Source: Minisyncoccota bacterium
GTDB lineage: Bacteria; Patescibacteriota; Minisyncoccia; Phycocordibacterales; UBA9973
Direction: 5' to 3'
NCBI GenBank assembly: GCA_035353995.1
Contig: DAOQAL010000002.1
Span: forward strand, 99,762-163,761
Length of the DNA: 64,000 nucleotides
Both the position numbers and the translations under genes were made by a program. Positions 2,114 through 44,849 of the stretch are shown here, piece after piece. The notes beneath the pieces are model-generated. The model worked only from the letters and a program-made list of their open reading frames with translations. It was not told the origin of the DNA and searched no databases. Position 1 is the stretch's first letter, and each line of letters starts with the position of its first letter.

Positions 2114-3058
2114 ATGAGTATAAAAACAGCAGAGTTTGTAAGCCCAGGACATCCAGATAAAATTTGTGATTTTATTGCTGATTCTATTTTGGACGCATAT
2201 TTAGAAAAAGATAAAGAAAGTCGTGTAGCAATTGAAGTTATGGGAGGACATAATTTAATTGTAATAAATGGAGAAGTTACAAGTAATGCAAGTCCAGATT
2301 TAGAATCTTTGGTAAAAAATATTATTGGCATGGATTTTAAAGTTATAATAAATTTGTCAAAACAGAGTTCAGATATAGCTCGTGGTGTTGATATTGGTGG
2401 AGCTGGAGATCAAGGAATAATGAAAGGATATGCAACTACTGAAACAGTATCTATGATGCCACGTGAGTATGAACTTGCTAGAAATTTATGTCAGAAAGTT
2501 TATGAAAAGTATCCACATGATGGCAAAGTGCAGGTAACCTTAAATGGAGATGTTGTTGAAACGGTAATTGTAAGTTTTCAAAATTCAAAAAATGAAGATC
2601 TTCTACCACTTGTACAAAATATTATAAAAGCAAATGAATATTTAATTAATCCAGCTGGTGAATGGACAATAGGAAGCTTTGATTCAGATACTGGTTTGTC
2701 AGGTAGGAAACTTGTTATAGATAATTATGGTCCAGAATTGCCAATCGGTGGTGGATCATTCTCTGGGAAAGATTATACAAAAGTAGACAGAAGTGGAGCT
2801 TACATGGCAAGAAAAATTGCAGTTGATTTTATAAAAAAAGGAATTGCTAAAGAAGTATTTGTTAAACTTGCATATGCAATAGGAAAACCAGAGCCAGTTA
2901 TGGCTGTTGCTGTATTAGATGGTAAAGAAATAAAAATTGAAGGATATGACTTAACGCCAAAAGGAATAAAAGAAACTTTAAATTTAGAAAATACAAAATT
3001 TGCTGATACTGCTCGTTGGGGCCATTTTGGACGATCTGATTTTTCTTGGGAAAAATAA
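2114..3058 (+). CDS. metK: S-adenosylmethionine synthetase (short form, 314 aa)
   Basis: N-terminal SPGHPDKICDFIADSILDA and C-terminal GGGSFSGKDYTKVDRSGAYMAR match MetK signature regions. It is about 70 aa shorter than E. coli MetK. Confidence 0.75.
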   Translation: MSIKTAEFVSPGHPDKICDFIADSILDAYLEKDKESRVAIEVMGGHNLIVINGEVTSNASPDLESLVKNIIGMDFKVIINLSKQSSDIARGVDIGGAGDQGIMKGYATTETVSMMPREYELARNLCQKVYEKYPHDGKVQVTLNGDVVETVIVSFQNSKNEDLLPLVQNIIKANEYLINPAGEWTIGSFDSDTGLSGRKLVIDNYGPELPIGGGSFSGKDYTKVDRSGAYMARKIAVDFIKKGIAKEVFVKLAYAIGKPEPVMAVAVLDGKEIKIEGYDLTPKGIKETLNLENTKFADTARWGHFGRSDFSWEK

Positions 3059-5884: not shown

Positions 5885-6499
5885 TTATTGTCTATTTTTA
5901 AGAGCATTTTTTATTGTGTCATTGTCCGAATATTCAAGTTCTGTACCAGTAGAAAGGCCACGCCCTAAGGATGATATTTTAATTCCAAATAATTCTGTGA
6001 TATTTTTAATTTCACTTCTAATATAAAGATCAGTGTGGTCTCCTTGTGGACTTAAAGAAAATGCCAATATAATTTCTTTTAATTCTTTTCCATCTTTTTT
6101 TATTTTTTGTATAAGTTCATTTACGCGTATTCTACTTTTAGTATTCTTTTCTACTATTGGTACTAATCCTCCTAAAATAAAATATTTTCCGTGATAACTT
6201 CTACTTTTTTTTATACTTTCAAAATCTGAATCTTTTTCAACTATCATCAAGATGGAATTATCGGTATGTGGACTGGAACAAATATCACAAATTTTATTTT
6301 CATTATTTTTTACAATAAAAAATCTAAAACATTCCTTGCATTGTGTTATCTCTTTCTTTAAATCTTTTATTAAAAGAAGAAAATTTTCAACGTAACTTTG
6401 ATTTTTAGACATTAAAAAATAAACAAAACGTTTTGCTTGTCTTTCTCCAATTCCTGGAAATTCTTTAAATATTTCTGTTAGTTTTTCTATCGTGTCCAT
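5885..6499 (-). CDS. recR: recombination protein RecR
   Basis: C4 zinc finger (CKECFRFF...CDICS) followed by a Toprim-like region. Length 204 aa. Confidence 0.85.
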   Translation of the reverse strand: MDTIEKLTEIFKEFPGIGERQAKRFVYFLMSKNQSYVENFLLLIKDLKKEITQCKECFRFFIVKNNENKICDICSSPHTDNSILMIVEKDSDFESIKKSRSYHGKYFILGGLVPIVEKNTKSRIRVNELIQKIKKDGKELKEIILAFSLSPQGDHTDLYIRSEIKNITELFGIKISSLGRGLSTGTELEYSDNDTIKNALKNRQ

Positions 6500-6545
6500 A
6501 AGATGATTATATCAGATTGTATAGATAAGGATTAGTCCACATTTT

Positions 6546-7937
6546 TTAGAATTCATCTAACGAGTCAGAAATTTTTGCAGCTGAGAATTCGCTTATGCTA
6601 CTTTTTTCCAAACTTAAGAACGTAGTAGTCTTTTCGTCGAAATATAATTCAATTTTACCAGTCGGTCCATTTCTATGTTTTTCAATCATAATCTCTGCTA
6701 TATTTGTTTTTTCTGATTCATCTTTTCCTTTATCTTCTCTATGAATAAACATTACAACATCTGCGTCCTGTTCGATTGATCCAGAGTCTCGAAGATCAGA
6801 AAGTCTAGGTCTTCCTCCACGAGATTCCACTGCTCTGGAAAGTTGGGAAAGAGCAAGCACTGGAACATCTAATTCTTTTGCTAAACTCTTTAATGATCTA
6901 GAGATTTCAGTAACTTGATTTACCATAGAATCGTAATTTTTAGATGTAGTCATAAGTTGCAAATAGTCAACGATAATCATATCAAGTCCTTTTTCGGCTT
7001 TTAATCTGCGTGCAGTAGCTTTCATTCTAACAATAGAATTACCTGGTTGGTCATCAATATAAATTTTTGCTTTAGATAATTTATCAAGAGAATCTCTAAG
7101 TTTAGAAAAATCATTATCACCTGATAGGCGACCTGTTCGCAAATTCCACGCATTAACTCTTGATTCAGCAGCAAGCATTCTGTCTACTAATTGTTGAGAA
7201 GACATTTCAAGAGAGAAAATTCCAATAGACTTATCGTGTTGTATTGCTGACATTCTGGCTATATCAAGAGCAAGTGTAGTTTTTCCCATAGATGGTCTTG
7301 CAGCAAGAATAATCAAATCTGACTTTTGAAAACCAGAAAGAATATTATCCAAATCATGGAATCCCGTAGGAACACCACGCAATGAATCTTTGTGCTCGTG
7401 TAATTTTTCTAAACGTTCAAATGCTTCTGGTAAAGCGTCTTTTAGACTCGTAAACTTTTGATTTTTTGGAGAAGATACAACACTAAAAACTTTTTTTTCT
7501 GCTTTGTCTAAAATATCATCCATGTGTTCATCATTTTCTTCAAATGCAAGTTCTGAAACATAATCAGCTGCATCTATCAAACTTCGCAATATAAATTTTT
7601 TCTGAACAATATTTGCGTAATGTTTTATATTTGTTGATGATGGAACACCATTTGCTACTTCAGCGAGATATTGATTACCACCAATAGAATCAAGTAATTT
7701 TTTTTCACCAAGTTTAGTAGAAAGAGAAAGCATGTCTATTGGTTCATTTTTCAAATATAAATCAAGCATTGCTTGAAAAATAATTTTATGTTTTTCAGCA
7801 TAAAAAGAATCCGGAGTAATTATGTCTTCAATTTCATGTATTGCATCCTTACGAAGCATTATTGAACCCAATACTGCTTTCTCTGAATCAATACTTTGAG
7901 GAGGAATTCGAACACCACTTTTTGTTATCTTTGGCAT
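6546..7937 (-). CDS. dnaB: replicative DNA helicase DnaB
   Basis: 463 aa. N-terminal DnaB domain, Walker A (ARPSMGKT), IIVDYLQLM and the RecA-like C-terminal domain are all present. Confidence 0.9.
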   Translation of the reverse strand: MPKITKSGVRIPPQSIDSEKAVLGSIMLRKDAIHEIEDIITPDSFYAEKHKIIFQAMLDLYLKNEPIDMLSLSTKLGEKKLLDSIGGNQYLAEVANGVPSSTNIKHYANIVQKKFILRSLIDAADYVSELAFEENDEHMDDILDKAEKKVFSVVSSPKNQKFTSLKDALPEAFERLEKLHEHKDSLRGVPTGFHDLDNILSGFQKSDLIILAARPSMGKTTLALDIARMSAIQHDKSIGIFSLEMSSQQLVDRMLAAESRVNAWNLRTGRLSGDNDFSKLRDSLDKLSKAKIYIDDQPGNSIVRMKATARRLKAEKGLDMIIVDYLQLMTTSKNYDSMVNQVTEISRSLKSLAKELDVPVLALSQLSRAVESRGGRPRLSDLRDSGSIEQDADVVMFIHREDKGKDESEKTNIAEIMIEKHRNGPTGKIELYFDEKTTTFLSLEKSSISEFSAAKISDSLDEF

Positions 7938-18168: not shown

Positions 18169-18182
18169 ACTCAGCTTTTTTT
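18154..18182. terminator. intrinsic terminator (bidirectional)
   Basis: GCTGAGTCTAATTAGACTCAGC perfect hairpin followed by a T7 run. It lies between convergent genes. Confidence 0.65.
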
Positions 18183-20115
18183 ATAATAAATCTTCAGGAT
18201 CAATATTTATATAAAATGATGGTGGTAGGGAAATTAGTTTATTTAAAAGATTCTGATCTATTGATGTTTTTGAAGAGATTTCTGGTAATGACCATTTATT
18301 TGTATCAACTTTTATTAATATATTAGTGATATATTTGTTTTTTTGTTTTGATATAAAGCCACTAAAAATTTCTGGGTTGTAATCTTTAAAAAATTCACTT
18401 AATGTTTTTTTTGTATTTATTGTATTTTCTTTATCGCCAAAATAAGTTATTTTAATAAAACGCTTATATGGAGGATATCCTAATTTTTTTCTATCTTCCA
18501 ATTCATCTCTTACGAAAGAAAGTAAATTTTCATTTATAATAGATTTTACTGCTAAATCTTTTTCATTTTTTGTTTCTATAATAAATCTTTTTTCAGTTTT
18601 AGAAATTATGGAAGTTAAAATTTGAATAATTTTTTCACTAATTTTAAAATTTGGTATACTCCAAAGCGAATCGAAAGAAGCAATTATTGAAAGTGGTATT
18701 TTATTTTTTAAATAAAATAATGCCATTTCTGTTCCTATAAGTATTGCTCCAGAAGATTCTTCAAAATCATCAACTATTTTTTCTGCTTGTTTTTTTGTTT
18801 TAGCAGATTCTTTATCTAATTTAAATATTTTATTTTCTGGGAAAAAAGTTTTTATTTCTTCGAAAACTGTTTGTGTGCCAATTCCTAAAGGCATTAAATT
18901 CCATCCTCCACAATTTGTACACCTTGTCCTTGGATCCATTTCTTCTCCACATTTATTGCAAACGAACATTCTTTTATTTCCATCTCGTGATAAGTAAAGC
19001 ACTATTGGAGCCATACATTTAGTACAATTTACAGTTTCATTGCAATCTTTGCATATTGTTGTTGTAGCTAAACCTTTTCTTAGGGTAAAAATAAATACAT
19101 TTTCCTTTTTTGCTATAGAGTTTTGTATTTCTTTTAAGGTTTCATTTGTCAAAATTTTAAATTTGCTGTCTGTTTTTGGAGGAAATTCTATTTCTCCATT
19201 AAAATTTAGCCTAAAAGACAAAGGATGTATTTCACTAAAATTATCTATTTCTCTTCTTGCTGTTGTTTCAAAACGTAATAATGAATCTGCTAGTATAAAT
19301 TTTGCATTTATTTTAGAAGCAAAAATTTCTGCAAAAATTCTAAAATCCAAATGGTTTTTACCTATAGTTTTATAAGCACTAGAATTTTCGTTTTCAATTA
19401 TTATTGTTTCTAAATCATAACGTGGAATAGATAAGTAAGGAACTGTACCGAGTATTAGCATTGGATGCTCTGATGTCAATATCTTTTCCATATTCTCAAT
19501 TTGTTTTTTGTGAGTTAGTCCTCCATGTATTGATATTGCAAAATTTTCAATACCTTTGAATAATGATTCAGAAAAAATATCTATATCATGCTCTGTAGGT
19601 AATACTATAAAAATTGATTTTTTCTTTGCAAAAGATTCACGAATTAATGTTTTATAAAAAGATATTCTTTCAGAAAAGGGTGCTTGAAAAAGTAATTTTT
19701 CTGGTTTCATTTTTAATATTTCTTTTTTTTCAAATGCATTTTCTTTTTGTGTTCCATTTATTATTTTAGATATTTTATCGTATCCCTCTTTAAAGGCTGA
19801 TGGTATTACAAAAGAAATCAAATTGCTTTTATTTGATGCAAAATATTTACTAGCTAAAATTGCTGAGTCTAGAAATTCTTTTCTAAAAATAGATATACCT
19901 TTTACGTCTATTATTTTTTTTAAATCAAAATCAAGTTCCTTTATTTTTGATTTTATATTTACAACTTCTTCTGAAGATATAGTAAGACCCAATATTTTTT
20001 TATTGCGTATTGATATGCTTACGATGCTACCATCAGGTATATCTTTTGCTGAAAAATACGTTAAATTATCATTTAAGACTCCTTTTTTAAACGGAATTAC
20101 CGATACAGCTTTCAT
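18181..20115 (-). CDS. priA: primosomal protein N' (PriA)-like, ATPase motifs degenerate
   Basis: C-terminal 4xCxxC zinc-binding region (CKDCNETVNCTKC ... CNKCGEEMDPRTRCTNCGG) and PriA C-terminal domain blocks (ILIGTEMA, LGYPPYKRF). The positions aligning to Walker A and DEEH read PFSERISF and ENEN. Confidence 0.75.
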   Translation of the reverse strand: MKAVSVIPFKKGVLNDNLTYFSAKDIPDGSIVSISIRNKKILGLTISSEEVVNIKSKIKELDFDLKKIIDVKGISIFRKEFLDSAILASKYFASNKSNLISFVIPSAFKEGYDKISKIINGTQKENAFEKKEILKMKPEKLLFQAPFSERISFYKTLIRESFAKKKSIFIVLPTEHDIDIFSESLFKGIENFAISIHGGLTHKKQIENMEKILTSEHPMLILGTVPYLSIPRYDLETIIIENENSSAYKTIGKNHLDFRIFAEIFASKINAKFILADSLLRFETTARREIDNFSEIHPLSFRLNFNGEIEFPPKTDSKFKILTNETLKEIQNSIAKKENVFIFTLRKGLATTTICKDCNETVNCTKCMAPIVLYLSRDGNKRMFVCNKCGEEMDPRTRCTNCGGWNLMPLGIGTQTVFEEIKTFFPENKIFKLDKESAKTKKQAEKIVDDFEESSGAILIGTEMALFYLKNKIPLSIIASFDSLWSIPNFKISEKIIQILTSIISKTEKRFIIETKNEKDLAVKSIINENLLSFVRDELEDRKKLGYPPYKRFIKITYFGDKENTINTKKTLSEFFKDYNPEIFSGFISKQKNKYITNILIKVDTNKWSLPEISSKTSIDQNLLNKLISLPPSFYINIDPEDLL

Positions 20116-20152
20116 GTTTTTATTCTATCATAAATTGTGATATATTTACTTT

Positions 20153-21171: not shown

Positions 21172-21897
21172 ATGGAAATAATAGAATATTTTGACAAGGA
21201 TAATTTGCATCATGCTTATTTAATAGAAGGAACAAAGGAGAAAATATTACCTAATATTTTATTTTTTGTTAATAGTCTAGGAATAAAAACTTCTGGAAAC
21301 CCTGATTTTTGTAATTTAGAATTAGATTCTTTTACCATTGAAGATGCAAGAAATTTGAAATCAATGGGATCACAAAATGGTTTTTCTAATAATAAAAAAA
21401 TTTTTATTATATCGGCAAATAATTTTTTAATTGAAGCGCAGAATACATTACTTAAAATTTTTGAAGAACCAATAGAAAATACTCATTTTTTCTTAATCGT
21501 ACCAGATGCAAATATTTTTTTACCTACTTTGTTTTCTAGATTTTATTTTATAAAAACAAAACCAGATCTAAATGAAGAAATTAAAATAGCTGAAGAATTT
21601 ATATCACTTTCAAAAAAAGACAGAATTGCATTTCTTAAGGATAATTTAAAAGAAGAAGAATATGATGACGATTTCGAGAAATTATCAAAAGATTCAGTGA
21701 GGTCAAAAGCAATAAGATTTTTAAATGCCCTTGAAGTTGTTTTGCACAATAAATATTTTTTAAATAAAAATTTTAAAGAAGATGCAGATATCAATTTTTT
21801 TGATCAAATTTTAAAAGTACGGGCATATTTAAATCAACCAGGTTCTTCAATGAAAAACCTTATGGATTCAATTGCATTAAATATCCCCAGTTTCTAG
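21172..21897 (+). CDS. holB: DNA polymerase III delta' subunit-like
   Basis: HAYLIEG, KKIFIISANNFLIEAQNTLLKIFEEP and TLFSRF blocks align with HolB/DnaX clamp-loader regions. There is no Walker A, as expected for delta'. Confidence 0.6.
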   Translation: MEIIEYFDKDNLHHAYLIEGTKEKILPNILFFVNSLGIKTSGNPDFCNLELDSFTIEDARNLKSMGSQNGFSNNKKIFIISANNFLIEAQNTLLKIFEEPIENTHFFLIVPDANIFLPTLFSRFYFIKTKPDLNEEIKIAEEFISLSKKDRIAFLKDNLKEEEYDDDFEKLSKDSVRSKAIRFLNALEVVLHNKYFLNKNFKEDADINFFDQILKVRAYLNQPGSSMKNLMDSIALNIPSF

Positions 21898-26566: not shown

Positions 26567-27160
26567 ATGAAAAGAATATTTTCAACATTAAGTCCAAAAT
26601 ATGTTTTGGTCTCTTTCTCCAAAGACGGAAAAAGAAAAAGAATAATTCTAAAAGAATTTGGAGTCTGTAGTATTGGCACATATGAAAACATAAAAGCCAT
26701 AGAAAGTGCCCTTACGGATTCCGGTGTTTATCTGACTGACTTGGTCAAGAAAACTATTTCTAGCACAGCTTTTAAATTTACAAGACAAAAAAAAGTTCAA
26801 CTATTCATTCAGATTTCAGCCTCTGATCTTGGCTTCAAAAATGGTGGTAGGTATAAGGATATTATTAACAGCATATTAGGTGCTGTGGTGATATTACGAG
26901 GGAGAAAATACATAGTAGAGTTTTGTCTTCCCGAAGTTGCCTTGTATTTACGTCTACAGTATAAAAATCAACCAGTAGAACCAATTGAAGTTGAAGAGCG
27001 AGTTGATGTTGTTATGGAGCCGATAAAAGGAGAAAGGAATGATTATGTTTTACGCCTAGTGCACGATACAGAAGGAATAGCTTTAGCAGGACATCCTGCT
27101 CATGAAAATTGTCCAAGATATTCCGGTGATAAATTTATTTTTTCTCTGCGTGCCAAGTAA
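26567..27160 (+). CDS. hypothetical protein (sole gene in the direct-repeat-bounded 1.08 kb unit)
   Basis: 197 aa ORF with no recognised motif. G+C is higher than host genes. Confidence 0.4.
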   Translation: MKRIFSTLSPKYVLVSFSKDGKRKRIILKEFGVCSIGTYENIKAIESALTDSGVYLTDLVKKTISSTAFKFTRQKKVQLFIQISASDLGFKNGGRYKDIINSILGAVVILRGRKYIVEFCLPEVALYLRLQYKNQPVEPIEVEERVDVVMEPIKGERNDYVLRLVHDTEGIALAGHPAHENCPRYSGDKFIFSLRAK

Positions 27161-27174
27161 TGGCTAGGTTCTAA

Positions 27175-27210
27175 GGGGTTGTTATTTTTTTACGATGACA
27201 ACCCTTTTTT
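27175..27210 (+). terminator. intrinsic terminator
   Basis: GGGTTGT ... ACAACCC stem followed by a T6 run, directly after the 26567 ORF stop. Confidence 0.5.
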
Positions 27211-27290
27211 ATTTCCCCAAACCAATAAATTCCCCAATACTAACCATAACTAAAGGATAGTATTTCAAAAGTTCTGAAATTCCTATACTA

Positions 27291-27335
27291 AGCCCGCTAC
27301 AACAAGCACAGGACAGATTAATGCTGTCCGATAAG
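27291..27335. repeat. direct repeat copy 2 (att-like)
   Basis: AGCCCGCTACAACAAGCACAGGACAGATTAATGCTGTCCGATAAG. Compare with 26211-26251. Confidence 0.55.
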
Positions 27336-27364
27336 TAGTTTTTAATTATGATATAATTTAATTT

Positions 27365-27982
27365 ATGAAACTTATAATTTTTGATTGGTCTGGAGTAATA
27401 AAAGATGGATTGGAGAGCAACTTGTGGATTTGTAATAAAATATTTGAAAAATTCGGAGTACCAACTATTTCACTTGAGGAATTTAAAGAAAATTATGAAC
27501 TTCCTTACATGAATTTTTTTAAGAAATATATTCCTAGTCTAACTCTTGAAGAAGAACGAATTATATATAAAAAATATATATTTGATATAAATTGTCCAAA
27601 ATCTAAATCGTGCTTAGGTATTATTGAATTAATTAAGAAACTAAAAGAAAATAATTATCACTTAGCAGTGGTAAGCTCTGATTTTCCAGGAACAATTTTT
27701 GCAGAAATAAAAGAGTATGGGTTGGAAAATATTTTTGATGATGTAATTACAGGTATATATAATAAACTCGAAGGTGTTAATAATGTTATAAAAAAAAGAA
27801 ATTTTGATTTAAGTAATACTTTTTTTGTTGGTGATACTAATCATGAAATAGAAGTGGCAAGACAGGCAGGTATAAAAAGCATAGCAGTAACTTGGGGGTT
27901 TTGTTCTGAGCAAAAACTTAAATTAGAAAATCCAGATTATCTTGTGCATAATTCAAATGAATTAGAAAAGATTCTTTTGTAA
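27365..27982 (+). CDS. HAD-superfamily hydrolase-like protein
   Basis: N-terminal IIFDWSGVI (motif I with DWSG rather than DxDG) and GDTNHEIEVARQAG (motif IV-like). Length 205 aa. Confidence 0.45.
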   Translation: MKLIIFDWSGVIKDGLESNLWICNKIFEKFGVPTISLEEFKENYELPYMNFFKKYIPSLTLEEERIIYKKYIFDINCPKSKSCLGIIELIKKLKENNYHLAVVSSDFPGTIFAEIKEYGLENIFDDVITGIYNKLEGVNNVIKKRNFDLSNTFFVGDTNHEIEVARQAGIKSIAVTWGFCSEQKLKLENPDYLVHNSNELEKILL

Positions 27983-28053
27983 ATCTTGTGTACATTGTGC
28001 ACTTTATAGATAAATTAAATCTACAATACTTATCCCCAAAAAAACAAAAATAA

Positions 28054-28080
28054 GCCCCCGCAAAAAAATTTTGCGGAGGC
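28054..28080. terminator. bidirectional terminator hairpin
   Basis: GCCCCCGCAAAA-AAA-TTTTGCGGAGGC, a 12-bp stem with one mismatch, flanked by A/T runs. It lies between convergent genes. Confidence 0.5.
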
Positions 28081-28142
28081 TTAAGTGTTTAAGAGTTAAA
28101 ATAATCTGGGAGATTATTTTAAGGTCCTCAAGTAATCAAGTA

Positions 28143-28943
28143 TCACTTCCTAGCGACCGACAAACCGAGATCGCTACTGCGGTGACTATCCCAGTAGCCG
28201 CCGACGTTCAGACCCCCGCCGTCAAAGAAGCCGACGTTGACGTGATCGCCGCCCGAGTCGAGGCTTGATGTGCGGACATAAATTCCGCCAAACAAGTAAA
28301 CGTCTCTGACTGCTTTGTAGGTTGTGATTGCCCAGGTGAATTCAGCAGAATTCGGTACAGTTTCAACATCGGAAATCAGGGTTTGCTGTTCTTCCCAGTT
28401 TTTAGAAGTTGATTCGGGGACAGGGTTCTTGCGAATCATGTACCATTTTGTTTCAACTTTGTCTTTCTGTGAAAAATTCTGATCAGCATACCATCCACCA
28501 TCTTTTGAGTAGAAGTAACCATTTTTCATGGTACGAATCTCAAGAAGAGACATTGGACGGTTGGGACCAGCGACAAGCATGTAACTGTTGTCACGGCACC
28601 ATTCCAGAATTTCTTGTGCAGGAACTGTTTCGCCGAACTTGGCAAGCTGTTCTTCGGTGTAAGTAACTCCTTTACGTGATTTCATCACGTCTTCAGGAGA
28701 AATGAAATCCTTACCGAGAATTGTGCGAACCAGTTCATAATCTGGAGCTTTCATGGAGAAACGCTTGATACCTGTAAGCAGGTAAGCAGCGAATCCAGGA
28801 TTCTCATTCAGAACCTGTGCACTTTCTTCTGTCAGTCCAGCCTTATTGTATTGGGCACGAAACGATTCGGTAGCTCTCTGTCCTTTCGGACTGTCTGCGG
28901 TTACCAGTGCAGACGTGTTCAATGACTTTTTCATCGACATCAT
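28143..28943 (-). CDS. hypothetical protein, compositionally foreign (~50% G+C)
   Basis: 266 aa ORF. The DNA is conspicuously GC-rich (e.g. 28150-28280) against an AT-rich genome. It has a Gly-rich C-terminus and no recognised domain. Confidence 0.45.
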   Translation of the reverse strand: MMSMKKSLNTSALVTADSPKGQRATESFRAQYNKAGLTEESAQVLNENPGFAAYLLTGIKRFSMKAPDYELVRTILGKDFISPEDVMKSRKGVTYTEEQLAKFGETVPAQEILEWCRDNSYMLVAGPNRPMSLLEIRTMKNGYFYSKDGGWYADQNFSQKDKVETKWYMIRKNPVPESTSKNWEEQQTLISDVETVPNSAEFTWAITTYKAVRDVYLFGGIYVRTSSLDSGGDHVNVGFFDGGGLNVGGYWDSHRSSDLGLSVARK

Positions 28944-28990
28944 CCTTTATTGGTTTTACCGAAATCGCTCGGCAACGGCTTTTCTCGTTA

Positions 28991-29043
28991 ATGAGATGAG
29001 CTTTTTAAGTCCTATAATATAAGGCATAAAAAGCTCATCTCAT
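28991..29043. promoter_or_regulatory. perfect 17-bp inverted repeat (ATGAGATGAGCTTTTTA / TAAAAAGCTCATCTCAT) enclosing a TATAAT box
   Basis: Seen directly, immediately upstream of the 28143..28943(-) gene. Candidate operator or hairpin. Confidence 0.4.
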
Positions 29044-29116
29044 GGAAGTGATATTTTAAAAGAACTCTTTCTATTATATCATATATAATGCTTTTGTCAA
29101 TAAACTATTTTGCATT

Positions 29117-29159
29117 ACCCCATAGGTCACCCCATAGGTCTTGCCTCTGGGGTAACTCT
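29117..29159. repeat. island palindrome family, copy 3 (with a 12-nt partial duplicate in front)
   Basis: ACCCCATAGGTC + ACCCCATAGGTCTTGCCTCTGGGGTAACTCT. Confidence 0.7.
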
Positions 29160-29303
29160 TTACTTTTAATAACATTCGTGGTATTGTACCATTACAATGG
29201 TTCTTTGAAATTGAACATGATTATTACTTGTTTGGATTACCTTGCACTTCCTTTGGGAGTTTGAAGTAATCCAAATGAGTATAAACAATTAAAGACAATA
29301 GTT

Positions 29304-29633
29304 ATGGAAAAATTAAAAAAATACCGACTAGGTAATCAGCCTACTGAGTATGAACTTGTTACAGAATATTTAGGGTGGCTTCCTGAAGACGCATCAAGTT
29401 GGTGGGACGTGTTCCAAATAATGGTTTCTTCTTCTGAAATTACAGGTAAAGAAATAACCATTACTAATCCTGAAAAAAATAAAAAAATTACAATTATTAT
29501 TGACCATAGAATTGTAAAAGATGCATTTCCCATGTCTTTTTTCGTGGAGGAGAGAGCAAAAAATTGGTATGATTTTTGTATTGTATCAAGTAAGGATAAA
29601 CCATCTGAAAAATTTATTATTCCACTTCACTAA
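29304..29633 (+). CDS. hypothetical protein
   Basis: 109 aa ORF with no recognised motif. It is preceded by a 10-bp inverted repeat (TTTGGATTAC ... GTAATCCAAA, 29231-29274). Confidence 0.35.
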   Translation: MEKLKKYRLGNQPTEYELVTEYLGWLPEDASSWWDVFQIMVSSSEITGKEITITNPEKNKKITIIIDHRIVKDAFPMSFFVEERAKNWYDFCIVSSKDKPSEKFIIPLH

Positions 29634-29688
29634 GTAGGGGGTATCCGAGCTTGAAGAGCTGGCATTTTTGTGTCAGCTTTTTTTATTT

Positions 29689-29720
29689 CTACATAGGTCT
29701 TGCCTCTGGGGTAACGGAGT
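29689..29720. repeat. island palindrome family, copy 4 (5' arm degenerate)
   Basis: CTACATAGGTCTTGCCTCTGGGGTAACGGAG. Confidence 0.6.
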
Positions 29721-29808
29721 ATTTTTCCATACTTGACTTTATCAATTTAAAGATGTATTATTAAACTGATATTTTATATAGTTCTTAACATTTAAAAAGG
29801 AGGTTTAA

Positions 29809-30408
29809 GTGAAAGATTTATTTGTCTGGCTTACCGTGATCACAATGACCACGTTTATTATTATTTATGTATACCAGATTTATAAGCATAAAATTTTTCC
29901 AGCTCTGTCTACTTGGATTATATTTCTTTGTGGAGTTGGCCTAAGTTTTGTTACTTATATTATTTCAGAAAAAAATGATTTAAGTTCTGGCGTATTAAAT
30001 ACCATAGATCTCCTGAACGTAGTAGTTGTAACTATCGCAATAATTCTTTGGGGTAAAAGAAGTCTACATCTTAAGCCTTTTGAAAAATGGTATTTAGTTG
30101 CTGTTGGTTTAATTATTTTTTATGGAATAATAACTGGTGATGCATGGAGTTCAAATATCTTAACTCAAGTATTAATTAGTGTTGGATATTTTCCAACCAT
30201 ACACGGTTTATTAAAAAGTAGGGTAAACACAGAATCATTCATTGGGTGGGGAATTAACTTGCTTGTTAGCTTTTTTGCCTTATACCCAGCATCGGTTAAT
30301 GGTAACCTGCTTGCAATAATTTATGCAACCAGAGCAGCCGTCCTTATCTCTGTATTATTAATAATAATGGTTTATTGTGAATTGACTAAAAAGAAAAAAC
30401 TAGCCTAG
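29809..30408 (+). CDS. polytopic membrane protein with GTG start and strong SD
   Basis: 199 aa with about 6 TM helices. AAGGAGGT lies 7 nt upstream of GTG, which is atypical for this genome. It is homologous to the 61313..61912(-) ORF (shared YQI.K, W, and Y..T/RKK tail). Confidence 0.5.
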   Translation: MKDLFVWLTVITMTTFIIIYVYQIYKHKIFPALSTWIIFLCGVGLSFVTYIISEKNDLSSGVLNTIDLLNVVVVTIAIILWGKRSLHLKPFEKWYLVAVGLIIFYGIITGDAWSSNILTQVLISVGYFPTIHGLLKSRVNTESFIGWGINLLVSFFALYPASVNGNLLAIIYATRAAVLISVLLIIMVYCELTKKKKLA

Positions 30409-30708: not shown

Positions 30709-31422
30709 ATGAAAAAAATCGTTTTTATTTTTGCAATGATGATGACATTCTCATCTTTGCAATTTGTGTACGCACAGGAAAATGTCGTACAGAACTGGAA
30801 TTTCCAAGAAGATTCGGACAATGACGGACAAGGAGATTATTGGACTTCACTTTGCTCTCCGTCTGTTTTTTCATGGAGCATCGTATACGGTGTTCAGTAT
30901 GTAAAGTGCGATTCAGTGTATTGTTACTCCGGGTCATTGGTGCAATATTTTCCGGATTCAATAATGCCTGGAACGTATATGCTTGAATTTGATACGTATT
31001 GTAGCAGAATTCTATGGCCATTTGTTGTACTACATGATTACAAACTGTCTTTCATCGGCACGGTTGTGCCGTCGACATGGCAACACTACGAAATTACATT
31101 TACTTCGTTAGCTTGGATAAGCGGTGTCGGTTTTTTAGCTGAGAGTGCAATTTCTCAAATAAAAATGGACAATGTAAAGTTGTATTTGCTATATGGAGTA
31201 GGATGTGAAAAACAAAAAGTAAAGCAATTAAAATTCTACCCGAATCCGGTCACTGATTACGTAAATATTTATTCATACGAAAATAAAAGAATCAGTATCT
31301 ACGATGTCTCCGGAACAAATTTTGGTCATTTTGATTTATTAAATGGTCAAAACAAGATCAATATGAGTTTTCTACCGTCTGGAATTTACATATTAGACGG
31401 ACAGAAAGTTCTGAAGAAATAG
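30709..31422 (+). CDS. secreted Cys-rich protein with Bacteroidetes-type T9SS (Por) C-terminal sorting domain
   Basis: Signal peptide ending ...VYAQ. The C-terminus KFYPNPVTDYVNIYSYENKRISIYDVSGTNF ... LPSGIYILDGQKVLKK matches the T9SS CTD consensus. G+C is elevated and there is no SD. Confidence 0.6.
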   Translation: MKKIVFIFAMMMTFSSLQFVYAQENVVQNWNFQEDSDNDGQGDYWTSLCSPSVFSWSIVYGVQYVKCDSVYCYSGSLVQYFPDSIMPGTYMLEFDTYCSRILWPFVVLHDYKLSFIGTVVPSTWQHYEITFTSLAWISGVGFLAESAISQIKMDNVKLYLLYGVGCEKQKVKQLKFYPNPVTDYVNIYSYENKRISIYDVSGTNFGHFDLLNGQNKINMSFLPSGIYILDGQKVLKK

Positions 31423-37444: not shown

Positions 37445-39676
37445 TTATAACTTAATTTTAGAAATTTTGTGTGGATTGTGATTGATGCAAGCTTTATTCG
37501 AGCATCTTTCTGGTATTGTTTTTGTTCCTTCCATCATTAAGCTACCGCATTTTTTACAAATTTTTCCAGTTGGTTTTGCTTTCATTGCAAATTTACAATC
37601 AGGATAATTTAAACAAGAATAAAAAACTCCAAATCTGCCACGCCTTTCACTTATTTCTCCATTTTTACATTCTGGACACATAACACCAGTTTTTTTCTTT
37701 GCTTCTTCTGCTTCATCTTTTTTTATAAATTTACATTTTGGGTATCTTGAACATGAAATAAAAGATCCAAATCTTCCTTGGCGTATTACTAATTTTCCGC
37801 CACCTTTAGGTGGTTTTTTATCTCCACATAAAGGACAAATTTCTCCAGTTTCTTTTGGTCCTTCCATTTTTTCACCATTAATCATCAATGCACCATCGCA
37901 GTCTGGATATTTAGAACACGAATAAAATTTTCCACTTCTTGAAAGTTTTATTATCATTGAGCTACCACATTTAGGACATTTTATTTCTTTTGGAGCTTCT
38001 CCTAAATTTGTTGCTTTCTCTAATTTTTCTTTTGATTTTACTTCTTTTGTAAACGGACCATAAAAATCTTTTAATGTTTTTTCGTATTCTCTTTCTCCTC
38101 TAGAGATTTCATCCAATTCATCTTCCATTTCAGCAGTAAATGTATCAGAAATATATTTTGAAAAATTATTTTCTAAGAAATCTGATACAACTTCGCCAAC
38201 ATCAGTAGGGAACAATGTTCTACCTTCTTTTCTTACATAACCTCTATCTTCTAATGTTTTCATTATTGAAGCGTATGTTGAAGGTCGTCCTATGTCTCTT
38301 GATTCAAGTTCTTTAACTAATCCAGCTTCAGAATATCTATTTGGTGGTTCTGTAAATTTTTCTTCATTTGTTAGTTTTATTAATTTTAAATTATCTCCTT
38401 CTTTCATTTTTGGAAGTTCTACATCTTCTCCTTTTCCATCACGATCTACTTCTAACCATCCTGCGAAAAGAGTACGTGAACCATTAGCTACAAATTCTGG
38501 TAATCCTGTTCCATCTTTTTCTTTATCTTTATTTTCTTCAATTTTTACTGAAATTTTTGTTTTTAATAATTTTGCATCTGTCATCTGTGAAGAAACTGTC
38601 CTTTCCCAAATTAGTTTATATAATTTTTCTTGTTCTTCATTTCCAGCATTTATATTTTCTATATGTGTTGGTCTTATTGCTTCATGAGCTTCTTGAGCGT
38701 TTTTTGATTTTGTTTTATAAATTCTTATTTGTGCATATTCTTTTCCATATTTTTTTTCAACAAGTGAGACGATTTGCATTTGCGCAACTTTAGATAAATT
38801 TGTGCTATCTGTTCTCATATATGTAATATGTCCAGCTTCGTAAAGTTTTTGTGCAATTTGCATTGTACGAGAAGGGGAATATCCTAAACGTGAACTTGCT
38901 GTTTGTTGCAAAGTAGAAGTCGTAAAAGGAGCACGAGGTGATCTTTTTTGTTCTGTTTCCTTAACTTCAGAAACAATCCATTTACCTTTTTCTCCTATTG
39001 AAATAATTTTTTCTACAAGTTTTTCATCGCGTGGTTCTTCTTTACACTCTAAAATTATTTTTTCTTTTTTTTCTGTTTCAAATAAACCAAAAACTCTCCA
39101 ATATTTTTCTGGTACGAATGCTCTAATTTCTCTTTCTCTTTCCATTATTATACGAAGAGCTGGAGATTGAACACGTCCAGCAGAAAGCCCATAGCGAACC
39201 TTTTTCCAAATTAATCCAGAAAGATCATATCCTACTAGTCTATCTAAAACACGTCTTGCTTCTTGAGCTTTAACTAATTTCATATCAATTTCCCCAGGAT
39301 TTTTTATTGCTTCTTCTACGGCTTCTTTAGTTATTTCAAAAAACGATACTCTTTTTATTGGAGCTTTTACTTTTTTATCTTTATTTAATAATTCTTCTAT
39401 ATGCCAAGCTATTGCTTCACCTTCGCGGTCTGGGTCTGTTGCTAGCATAATTTCATTTGCTTTTTCTGCTAGAGTTTGTAATTCATGCACTACTTTTTCT
39501 TTTCCTTTTGAAATTTCATAATTAGGAATAAAACCATTTTCTATATCAATTGCTTTTTTATTTGATTTAGGCAAATCTCTAATATGTCCTACTGAAGCAC
39601 GCACAGTAAAAGCCCCCTCTAAATATTTCTCAATAGTCTTCGCTTTTGATGGTGATTCTACAATTAAAAGCCTCAT
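37445..39676 (-). CDS. topA: DNA topoisomerase I
   Basis: Toprim N-terminus (LLIVESPSKAKTIEKYLG), an active-site Tyr region and multiple C-terminal C4 zinc ribbons. Confidence 0.9.
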   Translation of the reverse strand: MRLLIVESPSKAKTIEKYLEGAFTVRASVGHIRDLPKSNKKAIDIENGFIPNYEISKGKEKVVHELQTLAEKANEIMLATDPDREGEAIAWHIEELLNKDKKVKAPIKRVSFFEITKEAVEEAIKNPGEIDMKLVKAQEARRVLDRLVGYDLSGLIWKKVRYGLSAGRVQSPALRIIMEREREIRAFVPEKYWRVFGLFETEKKEKIILECKEEPRDEKLVEKIISIGEKGKWIVSEVKETEQKRSPRAPFTTSTLQQTASSRLGYSPSRTMQIAQKLYEAGHITYMRTDSTNLSKVAQMQIVSLVEKKYGKEYAQIRIYKTKSKNAQEAHEAIRPTHIENINAGNEEQEKLYKLIWERTVSSQMTDAKLLKTKISVKIEENKDKEKDGTGLPEFVANGSRTLFAGWLEVDRDGKGEDVELPKMKEGDNLKLIKLTNEEKFTEPPNRYSEAGLVKELESRDIGRPSTYASIMKTLEDRGYVRKEGRTLFPTDVGEVVSDFLENNFSKYISDTFTAEMEDELDEISRGEREYEKTLKDFYGPFTKEVKSKEKLEKATNLGEAPKEIKCPKCGSSMIIKLSRSGKFYSCSKYPDCDGALMINGEKMEGPKETGEICPLCGDKKPPKGGGKLVIRQGRFGSFISCSRYPKCKFIKKDEAEEAKKKTGVMCPECKNGEISERRGRFGVFYSCLNYPDCKFAMKAKPTGKICKKCGSLMMEGTKTIPERCSNKACINHNPHKISKIKL

Positions 39677-39715
39677 TAAACTTAAGTATTACACGAAATA
39701 TAATTTTTTAGCAAA

Positions 39716-40591
39716 TCATATCAATTTTATTTCTCCTAATTCTTCTTTTATTATCTCTTTTATTTCCATTATAGAAAGTAAAGAATTTGCTGTTGCTATA
39801 GGCATTTTCATTGCTCTTATAAGTTCATCTCTTGGCATAGGTTCACGTAAAATTTTTACAACCATTTTTTCTTCAGGAGAAATATCTTCAAAAAGTTTTG
39901 CTTGTCTATCTTCGTCTTTTTCTTTTTCAAAACCAAGAGCTTCTAGAACATCTTCTGCAGAAGTTACTGGTGTTGCACCTTGTTTGATTAATTTATTAGT
40001 TCCTTTTGAATTTAAACAAAAAATTGATCCTGGAACTGCAAGTAAATCTCTATTATATTCAGTTGCTAATCTCGCTGTAATTAAAGTTCCAGATTTTTCT
40101 TCTGCTTCAATTACAAGTATTGCTTTTGAAATGCCTGCCATTAATCTATTACGCATTGGGAAAGACCATTGAGTTGCTTTAAAATCTGGTTCAAATTCTG
40201 AAATTAAACATCCACCACTTTCTACAATATCTTTTACTAAACGAACATTTGTTTTTGGATACATAGCTTCGTCTGAAAGTCCTGAGCCTGGAAAAACTAT
40301 AGTTTTTAAACCTACCTGCATTGCTTTTTTATGTGCTATCGTGTCTATGCCCATAGCAAAGCCAGAGACTATAACTATTGGATAACCCTTAAGACCATTT
40401 ATTATTTTTTCACAAGCTTCTTTTCCGTAAGATGTAAATTTTCTTGAACCAACAACACATAAATAAATTAAATCTTTATTTTGTTTTGGCAGATCGCCAA
40501 TAATCCAAAGATTTTCTGGTGGTTGTGGTATTTCCATTAAAGCATTGGGAAATTGTTTTTTTGGTAATTTTTGAATTTTCATATATTGCAA
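39716..40591 (-). CDS. dprA: DNA processing protein DprA (Smf)
   Basis: Rossmann-like region with GSRKFTSYG and IVSGFAMGIDTIAH. Length 291 aa. Confidence 0.8.
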   Translation of the reverse strand: MQYMKIQKLPKKQFPNALMEIPQPPENLWIIGDLPKQNKDLIYLCVVGSRKFTSYGKEACEKIINGLKGYPIVIVSGFAMGIDTIAHKKAMQVGLKTIVFPGSGLSDEAMYPKTNVRLVKDIVESGGCLISEFEPDFKATQWSFPMRNRLMAGISKAILVIEAEEKSGTLITARLATEYNRDLLAVPGSIFCLNSKGTNKLIKQGATPVTSAEDVLEALGFEKEKDEDRQAKLFEDISPEEKMVVKILREPMPRDELIRAMKMPIATANSLLSIMEIKEIIKEELGEIKLI

Positions 40592-43766: not shown

Positions 43767-44849
43767 ATGAGTAAAACAAAAAACGAAAATTTAGCCTTAT
43801 ATCGTAAGTATCGCCCACAAACCTTTAACGAAGTCCTTGGCCAAGATCAGGTAGTAAAAGTGCTAGAAAGCTCTATAAAAGGCGATAAAGTGTCTCATGC
43901 GTACCTTTTTATTGGTTCTAGAGGCACTGGTAAGACTTCTGTTGCAAGAATTTTTGCGAAAGAAATAGGTGTTTCTCAGAATGATATTTATGAAATAGAT
44001 GCAGCCTCAAATCGTAAAATTGATGATATAAAAGAATTGCGTGATGGAGTTAATGTTTTACCATTTGATTCCAAATATAAAATATACATTATTGATGAAG
44101 TTCATATGCTTTCGCATGATGCATGGGGAGCATTACTAAAAACTTTAGAAGAGCCACCAAGGCATGTAATTTTTATTTTAGCTACTACTGAGCTTCATAA
44201 AGTTCCAGATACAATAGTTTCTCGATGCCAAGTTTTTACTTTTAGAAAAGCTTCTGATATTGTTTCAAAAAATATGATTTTGGATATTGTACAAAAAGAA
44301 GGTTATGAAATGGAAGTTGGTGCAGCTGAACTTTTAGCAATATTAGGAGATGGTTCTTATCGAGATGCAATTGGCTATTTGCAAAAAGTTTTGAACTTTA
44401 CTAAAGGTAAAAAAATAAAATTAGAAGAAGTTGAAAAAATTGTTGGCGCACCAAGTACAGTTTTAGTGAATGATTTTATTTCTGCTATTGCTTCTGATTG
44501 TTTAGAAAAGGGGATTGAAGCAGTGAGAAAAGCTTCTATTGAAAATTTAGATATGAAATTATATTTAAAGCGTATTATTCAAAAAATGCGTATGGCAATT
44601 ATTTTGCGTTATGCTCCTAAGCTTGAAAAACAAATGCAAAATGATTTGAGAGAATCAGATTTGGACTTTTTGAAAAATATTTTGCAAGGAGATTCTGTTA
44701 AAAACAGAGTATTTAATTCTGAAACATTATCAATATTACTTGAAGCATATGAAAATATTGATCGATCTTTCGTTTCTGAATTGCCACTGGAAATGGCTTT
44801 AGTAAAGATTTTAAAATCTGAAAAAAATCCAAAGACTAGTAAAGCTTAA
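43767..44849 (+). CDS. dnaX: DNA polymerase III subunit gamma/tau, short (gamma-like, 360 aa)
   Basis: YRPQTFNEVLGQ, HAYLFIGSRGTGKTS (Walker A) and SRCQ motifs. The tau-specific C-terminal domains are absent. Confidence 0.8.
   Translation: MSKTKNENLALYRKYRPQTFNEVLGQDQVVKVLESSIKGDKVSHAYLFIGSRGTGKTSVARIFAKEIGVSQNDIYEIDAASNRKIDDIKELRDGVNVLPFDSKYKIYIIDEVHMLSHDAWGALLKTLEEPPRHVIFILATTELHKVPDTIVSRCQVFTFRKASDIVSKNMILDIVQKEGYEMEVGAAELLAILGDGSYRDAIGYLQKVLNFTKGKKIKLEEVEKIVGAPSTVLVNDFISAIASDCLEKGIEAVRKASIENLDMKLYLKRIIQKMRMAIILRYAPKLEKQMQNDLRESDLDFLKNILQGDSVKNRVFNSETLSILLEAYENIDRSFVSELPLEMALVKILKSEKNPKTSKA

Follow-up and report, generated by a model that had tools for sequence, protein, structure and literature searches.

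A probable natural pseudohelicase PriA with a rewritten motor site in Minisyncoccota

In a 64,000-nucleotide stretch of a Minisyncoccota contig (the window), a priA-like gene was identified whose product is probably a natural pseudohelicase. On the evidence of its sequence and by analogy with characterized PriAs, and with a probability of roughly 0.8, the protein would have kept the PriA scaffold and lost the motor, recognizing forks and recruiting DnaB without unwinding DNA. The gene, its spacer and the regions of its product are located as follows, with equivalent residues given in E. coli PriA numbering.

18181..20115, minus strand: complete priA-like CDS with ATG start, 644 aa plus stop, an intact ORF for the putative pseudohelicase PriA
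20116..20152, no strand: priA-mreB spacer, 37 bp separating the divergent start codons
19801..20115, minus strand: probable N-terminal 3′-DNA-binding domain (3′BD), aa 1-105, modelled as a beta-barrel with a pLDDT of about 80-90
19711..19800, minus strand: short linker replacing the winged-helix domain, aa 106-135
19216..19710, minus strand: RecA-like lobe 1, aa 136-300, with rewritten nucleotide site, pLDDT about 93-97
19648..19695, minus strand: former Walker A, LLFQAPFSERISFYKT, aa 141-156 (Q144 = G224, R150 = K230, I151 = T231)
19369..19404, minus strand: former motif II, IIIENENSSAYK, aa 238-249 (E241-N242-E243-N244 = D320-E321-E322-H323)
19264..19296, minus strand: former motif III, ILADSLLRFET, aa 274-284 (D277-S-L = S356-A-T)
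18904..19068, minus strand: cysteine-rich region (CRR), aa 350-404, with eight zinc-ligand cysteines, inserted in lobe 2
18532..18903, minus strand: C-terminal part of RecA-like lobe 2, aa 405-528, with altered motif V (ILIGTEMALFYLKNK) and deleted motif VI loop
18571..18630, minus strand: former motif VI, IIQILTSIISKTEKRFIIET, aa 496-515, with a different sequence, shorter by five residues, in place of the GRAGRAGK arginine-finger loop
18184..18531, minus strand: C-terminal domain (CTD), aa 529-644, including LGYPPYKRF

Judged by profile matches and predicted fold, the gene is a bona fide PriA orthologue. The NCBIfam search gave strong matches to PriA models only, the best being NF004069 over the full length (E 2.4e-55), and PriA was the sole family matched by phmmer in the PDB (E 2.4e-20). 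Comparison of a 145-sequence family profile with seven canonical PriAs by hhalign resulted in a probability of 100% (E 2.6e-71, 590 columns). The identity to canonical PriA is about 15-20% (BLASTP against E. coli PriA; structure matches), and the protein stays under the curated cut-offs of all NCBIfam PriA models (TIGR00595 / PRK05580 models), reaching 178.0 bits vs. 230.35 for TIGR00595 and 188 bits vs. 767 for NF004069. The Pfam models PriA_CRR and PriA_C did not match the protein. A protein with 100% identity is recorded by NCBI from a MAG as ‘hypothetical protein PKZ36_01835, Candidatus Paceibacterota’. Most members of the clade are likewise named ‘hypothetical protein’ by NCBI, because their scores fall under the curated PriA cut-offs, and are called primosomal protein N′ by the JGI pipelines. 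As a result, surveys of metabolic and replication genes in Patescibacteria may record PriA as absent in error.

The predicted structures point to the same family. AlphaFold modelled the window protein with a pLDDT of 86.4 and a pTM of 0.87, and a relative with 39% identity, modelled from a different alignment, with a pLDDT of 88.7. The top nine Foldseek matches of the window model, with E-values from 5.5e-35 to 3.2e-25, were PriA chains without exception; the closest folds in the PDB are the PriA structures 8fak, 6dcr and 4nl4, followed by Mfd as the next family only at 1e-9. The best TM-score, 0.74, was obtained for 6dcr, a winged-helix-deletion construct of E. coli PriA. According to the models and Foldseek, the overall fold and two RecA-like lobes with PriA-specific topology are present. 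The earlier note had asked for a structural prediction of the nucleotide pocket, and in the two independent models the PriA fold is kept without a P-loop: both show beta1, a 2-residue turn and a helix beginning three residues ahead of the Arg, with no Gly-rich loop. In the window model these are a strand at 140-144, the turn, and a helix from residue 147.

The surroundings of the gene are those of a housekeeping locus. The divergent priA-mreB layout was found in 78 of 80 related loci with a median gap of 39 bp, holB is next in line in 75 of the 80, and each locus carries one copy of priA with the clamp-loader gene holB adjoining. Only mreB, holB, frr, rseP and rsmI are kept around priA across these relatives; no conserved partner gene next to priA was found in the loci compared, and the downstream orf129 is not conserved. 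The genes dnaB (6546-7937) and dprA (39716-40591), which had been noted before as kept in the same genome, are indeed located in the window, in which neither PriB nor DnaT was seen. The canonical Walker A is kept by DnaB, AtpA, AtpD, DnaX and MiaA of the same window, so that the loss of the motif is specific to the priA gene.

The alignment register was fixed by phmmer against PDB PriA, BLASTP against E. coli PriA, MAFFT (150 representatives plus E. coli) and hhalign. All four agree at the Walker lysine, where S148-E149-R150-I151 correspond to S228-G229-K230-T231, and the alignments agree on motif II, where E241-N-E-N corresponds to D320-E-E-H of E. coli. In MAFFT no gap separates R150 from its anchors, L141 (= L221) on the upstream side and P173 (= P253) on the downstream side; hhalign differs from MAFFT just upstream of S148, within a low-confidence stretch. 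The SIFIVLPTE block, from which the register had originally been judged correct, lies at aa 167-175, and the register also held in the profile-profile comparison by hhalign, as had been proposed for a check. Canonical PriAs (7 of 7, from four phyla) carry G[VI]T[GS]SGKT and DEEH. A regular-expression scan of all 644 aa for [AG]xxxxGK[ST], GK[ST], DExH and DExD found none of them, and thus no canonical Walker A or DExH is present in the N-terminal half, where the earlier note had considered that a correct alignment might place them, or elsewhere in the protein. Among the relatives, a Walker-A-like string occurs in only 4 of 509, each time at a different, non-homologous position.

In this register the motor site is rewritten throughout. 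The two substitutions described in the earlier note were both recovered as quoted: GxxGSGKT is replaced by QAPFSERI within LLFQAPFSERISFYKT, which leaves none of the three P-loop glycines, and ENEN within IIIENENSSAYK takes the place of DEEH, so that the catalytic E321 has become N (R/K/H in relatives) and H323 has become N (N/S in the clade). The degeneracy is wider than first noted and includes motifs Ia, III and VI, the aromatic-rich loop (ARL), in which W333 and Y335 of E. coli are replaced by N and L, and the missing winged-helix domain. In the former motif III, D277 is kept in 138/150, 117/117 and 118/118 relatives, and the flanking E283-T284 are common to canonical PriA. The LIGT of motif V is likewise common to canonical PriA, whereas KGHHFP is changed to FY-LKN and Q540 to E463. 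The 5-residue gap in motif VI relative to E. coli was found by MAFFT in all full-length representatives of the clade, with Q514-T515 retained, and a segment of about 24 residues (LNxEQ...) that precedes beta1 of canonical PriA is absent. By sequence, all elements for ATP binding, for hydrolysis and for its coupling to translocation are lost, and with motifs I, II, III and VI missing, neither ATP hydrolysis nor duplex unwinding is predicted.

The replacements are shared across a large clade, whose taxon names include Paceibacteria, Parcubacteria, Nomurabacteria and Vogelbacteria. Whether orthologues carry the same substitution had been posed as a check, and at the Walker-lysine site they do without exception: Arg was found in 503 of 503 aligned relatives of 34-66% identity (120/120, 148/148, 117/117 and 118/118). 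R150 is among the eight columns that stay invariant when 145 sequences with a mean identity of 35% are aligned, 62 columns are invariant among 120 close homologues, and lobe 1 is the best-conserved domain, with 21 positions conserved to at least 90% in 150 representatives. The former P-loop is acidic across the clade, with D/E at 146-149, e.g., Q-A-D-D-E-E-R. In motif II, position 241 is E in 116 and D in 34 of the 150 and E243 is kept in 145, while R/K/H/N are found where canonical PriA has the catalytic Glu (position 242) and S/N where it has the His (position 244); in one large sub-lineage the catalytic-Glu position is Lys or Arg in 112 of 118 members, with the flanking acidic residues kept. 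DEEH or EEEH occurs at motif II in a few sub-lineages (P0242, P0198, P0241 and P0267), in all of which Walker A is absent and the motif VI deletion present. The intact gene was found in at least 185 species-representative genomes, and the family forms at least 150 clusters at 50% identity and more than 1000 at 90%. As far as sequence conservation indicates, strong purifying selection acts on the replacement residues. No intermediates or canonical sister group were found; a search starting from the most canonical-like member, P0179, gave only further pseudohelicases, which means that the boundary of the clade was not reached.

The domains outside the motor are largely retained, including a probable 3′BD. 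Pfam PF17764 gave a weak match to the 3′BD of the window protein (aa 14-105, E 0.02, 15.1 bits vs. a threshold of 22.7), is precomputed for most homologues of the clade, and in hhalign aa 1-105 align to E. coli residues 1-101; Y20 (= Y18 of E. coli), F21 and G29 are conserved to at least 90%. The four CxxC pairs of the CRR (C355/358, C364/367, C386/389 and C399/402) align to C436-C479 of E. coli. All eight cysteines are invariant in 120 close homologues; clade-wide the same holds for C355, C358, C399 and C402, and the remaining four are conserved to at least 90%. The CTD was aligned by hhalign through residue 606, equivalent to E. coli 698; R542 (= R625) and P549 are invariant, Y547, P548, K555 and W608 are conserved to at least 90%, and PP548-549 corresponds to PP631-632. 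The C-terminal landmarks named before were thus found as quoted, with ILIGTEMA at aa 458-465, LGYPPYKRF at aa 545-553 and the four CxxC pairs. The winged-helix domain between 3′BD and lobe 1 is absent: P105 and L141 are 36 residues apart, compared with 120 between P101 and L221 in E. coli, a deficit of about 84, and residues 124-132 of the linker have a pLDDT below 50. Elements with which E. coli PriA contacts the fork, the winged-helix domain and the ARL aromatics, are hence gone or altered, and fork recognition may differ or require a partner.

Several other explanations of this gene were weighed against the pseudohelicase reading. A misalignment that hides a canonical Walker A and DExH has in its favor that E. 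coli PriA is so little identical overall, and nothing else; its probability verges on negligible, and it is refuted by the empty motif scan, by the few and non-homologous Walker-A-like strings among the 509 relatives and by the agreement of the four alignments at the Walker lysine and motif II. That the gene is a decaying relic or incipient pseudogene without selected function would fit the loss of all catalytic motifs, the low G+C and the reduced genome. However, the intact full-length ORFs across at least 185 species genomes and more than 1000 clusters at 90% identity, the 62 invariant columns among close homologues and eight at 35% mean identity, invariant replacement residues and a confidently predicted fold make this extremely improbable, and the conservation data effectively refute it. 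Another explanation is a neofunctionalized paralogue that works outside restart, with a canonical PriA encoded at some other place in the genome for the restart itself. It is suggested by the 15-20% identity, the missing winged-helix domain and the scores below every curated PriA cut-off. Duplicate genes of 640 aa are unlikely in very small genomes such as this one, and no canonical-type PriA from the clade is among the 509 collected proteins, all but about five of which are search matches. Scored with a canonical PriA HMM, 391 clade proteins spread continuously over 132-276 bits with no high-scoring outlier, the gene is single-copy with housekeeping synteny beside holB in each of the 80 loci, and the JGI pipelines name its product primosomal protein N′. 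The paralogue explanation is accordingly regarded as quite unlikely.

Similarly improbable is a site that still binds nucleotide in a non-canonical way, as a non-hydrolysing switch, either via Arg150 or with Y154-[KR]155-[ST]156 as a shifted GK[ST]. In some ATPases Lys-to-Arg mutants of Walker A still bind nucleotide, and such a switch draws on this survival of binding; a basic residue invariably stands in for the Walker lysine, residues 154-156 are conserved (Y in 144, K/R in 147 and S/T in 110 of 150), and motif II keeps its acidic residues at 241 and 243. Against it, all three P-loop glycines are lost, the acidic residues at 147-149 (D/E-E-E/D in most relatives) should repel phosphate, and both the arginine-finger loop and the segment of about 24 residues before beta1 are missing. 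The shifted GKT at Y154-K155-T156 was ruled out: Y154 aligns with the canonical Y234 and not with a glycine, K155 lies two turns into helix alpha1 in both models, and the gap-free L141-R150-P173 spacing in the MAFFT alignment, identical to L221-K230-P253 of E. coli, leaves a 5-residue shift to K155 unsupported.

For the pseudohelicase reading, a role in DNA binding and primosome loading, as first suggested in the earlier note, follows from homology, domain retention and the precedents of Deinococcus and priA300. The protein would recognize abandoned forks and D-loops via 3′BD, lobes, CRR and CTD, and would recruit or load DnaB directly or through a further partner, leaving the lagging-strand arm un-unwound. 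The invariant Arg, together with E/D241, E243 and D277, would most likely form a permanent salt-bridge network steadying the former nucleotide cleft. It is a more tentative and rather doubtful proposal that the former ATP site now holds an intramolecular mimic of the nucleotide or has turned into a new binding site. The charge-swapped, self-filled cleft could then fix the RecA lobes in one conformation, which would be ‘nucleotide-bound-like’ at all times and would license DnaB loading, or, alternatively, a new basic stripe on helix alpha1 (R150, K/R155 and R159) could bind DNA or the acidic tail of a partner. If so, replication restart in most Paceibacteria, and perhaps in Patescibacteria more widely, would use a re-engineered and not simply a crippled PriA.

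Literature searches on PriA in Patescibacteria or the Candidate Phyla Radiation returned nothing relevant. If the pseudohelicase reading holds, a much larger radiation dispenses with the PriA motor while the protein remains strongly constrained. This would support the idea derived from priA300 genetics that PriA is essential for recognizing forks and loading the helicase and not for unwinding, and would offer a natural comparative system for the purpose of the helicase activity. It also raises the issue of how ultra-small symbiotic bacteria restart replication without PriB or DnaT.

Canonical PriA, known from E. coli and K. pneumoniae (4NL4, 6DGD, 6DCR, 8FAK), is an SF2 DExH helicase, the primosomal protein N′. 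The protein of the clade shares its domain order, with a probable 3′BD, lobe 1, lobe 2 with the 8-Cys zinc region, and CTD. Landmarks of E. coli PriA common to the clade are Y18, P253, T303, E322, Y327-K328, R338, E362-T363 and R427-x-G429, as well as all eight Cys, LxGT of motif V, Q597-T598, R625 and PP631-632. It differs in having no Walker A, DExH, SAT, arginine finger or ARL aromatics and in the loss of about 84 residues including the winged-helix domain. Mycobacterial PriA is flagged by database curators as being without detectable helicase motifs (Actinobacterial PRK14873 models), and if this flag is right, Actinobacterial PriA represents another helicase-less lineage. The PRK14873 models match the window protein only from about aa 326 to 606, in the region of CRR and lobe 2, with a best E-value of 6e-17, which places it outside that subfamily.

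In E. coli PriA K230R (priA300), of which the window protein would be a wild counterpart, the same Lys-to-Arg change is found at the very site of R150 (= K230). Its ATPase, helicase and translocase activities are all abolished, but primosomes are still assembled, restart is supported in vivo and in vitro, and the mutant is almost wild type in vivo via the PriA-PriB pathway (PMC5778457). In priA300, however, one engineered substitution sits in a motor that is unaltered in all other respects, and the allele needs PriB and DnaT, whereas the motor of the Patescibacteria protein is wholly rewritten.

The closest parallel is the PriA of D. radiodurans, which has Arg in place of the Walker lysine and shows no ATPase or helicase activity, but binds ssDNA and forks normally and binds DnaB directly; since D. 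radiodurans has no recognizable PriB and DnaT, fork binding and direct DnaB recruitment were proposed as its role (Lopper, Boone and Morrow 2015, PMC4504706). The Deinococcus-Thermus PriAs in general have likewise lost motifs I and II, naturally and at the level of the phylum, and have Arg for the Walker Lys, and the window protein is of this type, having R150 at the position of K230 and unrecognizable motifs I and II. This likeness was drawn from the published description and covers motifs I and II. As the phyla are unrelated (Patescibacteria/Minisyncoccota and Deinococcota), the losses were presumably independent. The PriA pseudohelicase is a kind already known from D. radiodurans, of which the Patescibacteria probably provide a large and more radically remodelled case.

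The priA-like coding sequence is an intact reading frame in an AT-rich window (G+C about 0.25-0.39):

18181-20115, minus strand, priA-like CDS, intact ORF of 644 codons

Its product is 100% identical to the NCBI MAG protein 'hypothetical protein PKZ36_01835 [Candidatus Paceibacterota bacterium]', a name that now stands for the phylum Minisyncoccota, i.e., Patescibacteria. Strong NCBIfam matches were obtained with PriA models only (best E 2.4e-55, full length), all of them far under the curated cut-offs (TIGR00595: 178 vs. 230 bits). Pfam matches were sub-threshold only, and phmmer against PDB sequences matched PriA as the sole family (E 2.4e-20). Most clade members are called 'hypothetical protein' at NCBI, because their scores fall under all curated NCBIfam PriA cut-offs; the JGI name is primosomal protein N'. 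Surveys of Patescibacteria gene content relying on PGAP names would therefore overlook PriA.

The earlier note had described a PriA with degenerate Walker A and DEEH motifs, and all peptide strings it quoted were located where it had placed them. A canonical motif elsewhere in the protein would contradict this description, and a string scan over the whole length revealed no occurrence of [AG]xxxxGK[ST], GK[ST], DExH or DExD. Phmmer against PDB PriA pairs IIIENENSSAYK with VIVIDEEHDSSYK, and BLASTP against E. coli K-12 PriA pairs S148-E-R-I-S-F-Y with S228-G-K-T-E-V-Y as well as E241-N-E-N with D320-E-E-H. G[VI]T[GS]SGKT and DEEH are present in each of seven canonical PriAs, which represent four phyla (alpha-, beta-, and gamma-Proteobacteria, Bacillota, Cyanobacteriota, Bacteroidota). 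The profile alignment which the earlier note had proposed, a 145-sequence family profile against these seven in hhalign (probability 100%, E 2.6e-71, 590 columns), gave the same register as BLASTP at the Walker lysine and motif II; it differs from MAFFT just upstream of S148, in a low-confidence stretch. In MAFFT, the spacing L141-R150-P173 equals L221-K230-P253 of E. coli without gaps, so that a shifted register reading the conserved Y154-K155-T156 as 'GKT' is unsupported.

According to MAFFT, the degeneracy is not confined to motifs I and II:

Motif Ia: TPQ replaced by IDI
Aromatic-rich loop: W333/R334/Y335 replaced by N/H/L (family consensus P-H-F)
Motif III: SAT replaced by DSL
Motif V: KGHHFP replaced by FY-LKN
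Motif VI: arginine-finger loop replaced, with a 5-residue deletion

The three residues of the aromatic-rich loop link DNA binding to ATPase activity (PMC5175346). About 84 residues between the 3'-DNA-binding domain (3'BD) and the first RecA-like lobe, comprising the winged-helix domain and the helix before beta1, are missing relative to E. coli (MAFFT, hhalign). As judged from these alignments, the protein is shown to be PriA-derived with every ATPase and translocation element replaced or deleted.

For an AlphaFold2 model based on the family alignment (pLDDT 86.4, pTM 0.87; lobe 1 about 93-97), the top nine Foldseek hits among PDB structures are PriA chains without exception (E 5.5e-35 to 3.2e-25), with the top TM-score of 0.74 for 6dcr, an E. 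coli PriA with winged-helix deletion. The predicted nucleotide pocket bears out the loss: after strand 140-144 come a turn of two residues and a helix (147-163) starting three residues before R150, and no Gly-rich phosphate-binding loop is present in the model. This geometry recurs (strand 133-137, helix from residue 140, Arg143) when a relative with 39% identity is modelled from an independent alignment (pLDDT 88.7).

The substitution is shared, as Arg occupies the Walker-lysine site in 503/503 aligned relatives. The motifs are absent from all 120 closest homologues (58-66% identity), in which Q144, R150, Y154, K155, E241, and E243 are invariant. Searched exhaustively with phmmer, 1.84 billion cluster representatives yielded 1263 matches at E <= 1e-30; none of the best 150 (34-60% identity) has a P-loop, and Arg stands at the Walker-lysine column in all 148 that could be aligned. 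Two further database searches, with the profile and with the most canonical-like member as query, brought in another 117 and 118 proteins under the names Paceibacterota, Paceibacter, Parcubacteria, Nomurabacteria, Vogelbacteria or 'Patescibacteria group', all with Arg at this site (117/117 and 118/118). Only eight columns are invariant in the 145-sequence alignment (35% mean identity), namely R150, four zinc cysteines, G411, R542, and P549. The 'dead' lobe 1 contains 21 positions conserved to at least 90%, more than any other domain. The replacement state is thus shown to be of ancient origin, to be universal throughout a large clade of Patescibacteria and to be maintained by strong purifying selection. 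Conservation and the intact gene refute a pseudogene; register and motif scan refute a misalignment. Compositional drift is no explanation either, since DnaB, AtpA, AtpD, DnaX, and MiaA of the same window retain a canonical Walker A.

DEEH or EEEH persists in a few sub-lineages, aligned at motif II in the clade proteins P0242, P0198, P0241, and P0267 and as a string match only in P0439, P0445, and P0472. Walker A is missing from all seven, and the motif VI deletion is present in those that were aligned with E. coli, which suggests that P-loop and arginine finger were lost first and that motif II decayed later and variably.

It is unlikely that the protein retains residual nucleotide binding, as the former P-loop is acidic and devoid of glycines, the arginine finger has been lost by deletion and a helix is predicted at the site. 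The joint retention of Arg150, D277 and the acidic residues at positions 241 and 243 suggests that the former nucleotide cleft contains a permanent salt-bridge network. The catalytic-Glu and His positions of DEEH vary freely in the clade. One large sub-lineage combines a strongly acidic former P-loop with Lys/Arg at the catalytic-Glu position (112/118 members), a pattern compatible with a self-filled, charge-swapped cleft, which is speculative.

Three observations speak against a canonical PriA elsewhere in the genome with the present protein as its paralogue: the housekeeping synteny, the single-copy loci, and the scores of 391 clade proteins against a canonical PriA HMM, none of which stands out as canonical-like. 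The gene occurs in at least 185 species-representative genomes. In each of 80 retrieved loci it is single-copy; it lies head-to-head with mreB in 78 of them (median gap 39 bp), and holB comes next in 75, followed by frr and rseP.

20116-20152, priA-mreB spacer, 37 bp between divergent start codons
17779-18168, plus strand, Pfam-negative 129-aa ORF between rsmI and priA

Given this short spacer, the two promoters must overlap each other or sit in neighbouring coding regions. The mreB ATG is preceded at about 8 bp by a TGtgATATAT element, whose position hints that the mRNA has a very short leader or none. The 129-aa ORF had no tblastn match in the 80 related loci (median rsmI-priA distance 342 bp); it is an insertion specific to this lineage, or else no real gene. 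Locus L023 (JAMPXW010000002.1, a 267,744-bp contig), labelled 'Burkholderiales bacterium', carries a priA of the Patescibacteria type (59% identity to the window protein), and several 'uncultured Candidatus Saccharibacteria' MAGs have 55-59% identical copies. These and similar records, L044, L049, and L053 among them, are probably mis-binned or mislabelled.

Further features of the window are:

2114-3058, plus strand, S-adenosylmethionine synthetase, unusually short (314 aa), with partial N-terminal and central Pfam matches (3-71 of 99 and 3-91 of 120)
30709-31422, plus strand, 237-aa protein with C-terminal Por_Secre_tail (type IX secretion sorting, E 6e-10)
26567-30408, first higher-G+C patch, three ORFs (197, 266, 199 aa) without Pfam match
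51954-53444, minus strand, second higher-G+C patch, Lyase_1 family gene

Por_Secre_tail is normally linked with Bacteroidota and is unexpected in a Patescibacteria genome. The two patches (G+C 0.34-0.39 vs. about 0.29 elsewhere) may stem from horizontal transfer.

Replication and recombination genes are scattered over the window, including dnaB and dprA, both present as the earlier note had claimed:

5885-7937, RecR-like Toprim protein and adjacent dnaB (6546-7937, candidate partner of PriA)
21172-21897, holB, short (241 aa)
37445-40591, topA and adjacent dprA
43767-44849, dnaX, short (360 aa)

PriB, DnaT, DnaC, DnaD, DnaI, and DciA were not recognised among the window ORFs scanned against Pfam. 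By analogy with known systems, Patescibacteria PriA would recognise abandoned forks or D-loops via the retained 3'BD, lobes, cysteine-rich zinc region and C-terminal domain, and would recruit DnaB without unwinding. E. coli priA300 carries K230R at the position equal to R150; it lacks ATPase, helicase and translocase activity but still assembles primosomes and grows near wild-type via the PriA-PriB pathway (PMC5778457). PriA of D. radiodurans, an organism without PriB or DnaT, has the same Walker Lys-to-Arg change as Patescibacteria PriA, shows no ATPase or helicase activity, and binds ssDNA and forks normally and DnaB directly (PMC4504706). A natural PriA pseudohelicase is thus already known as a kind from Deinococcus-Thermus. 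Since a literature search found no paper in which PriA is discussed in connection with Patescibacteria or with the Candidate Phyla Radiation, the Patescibacteria protein is a new case, much larger and more radically remodelled than that of Deinococcus-Thermus.
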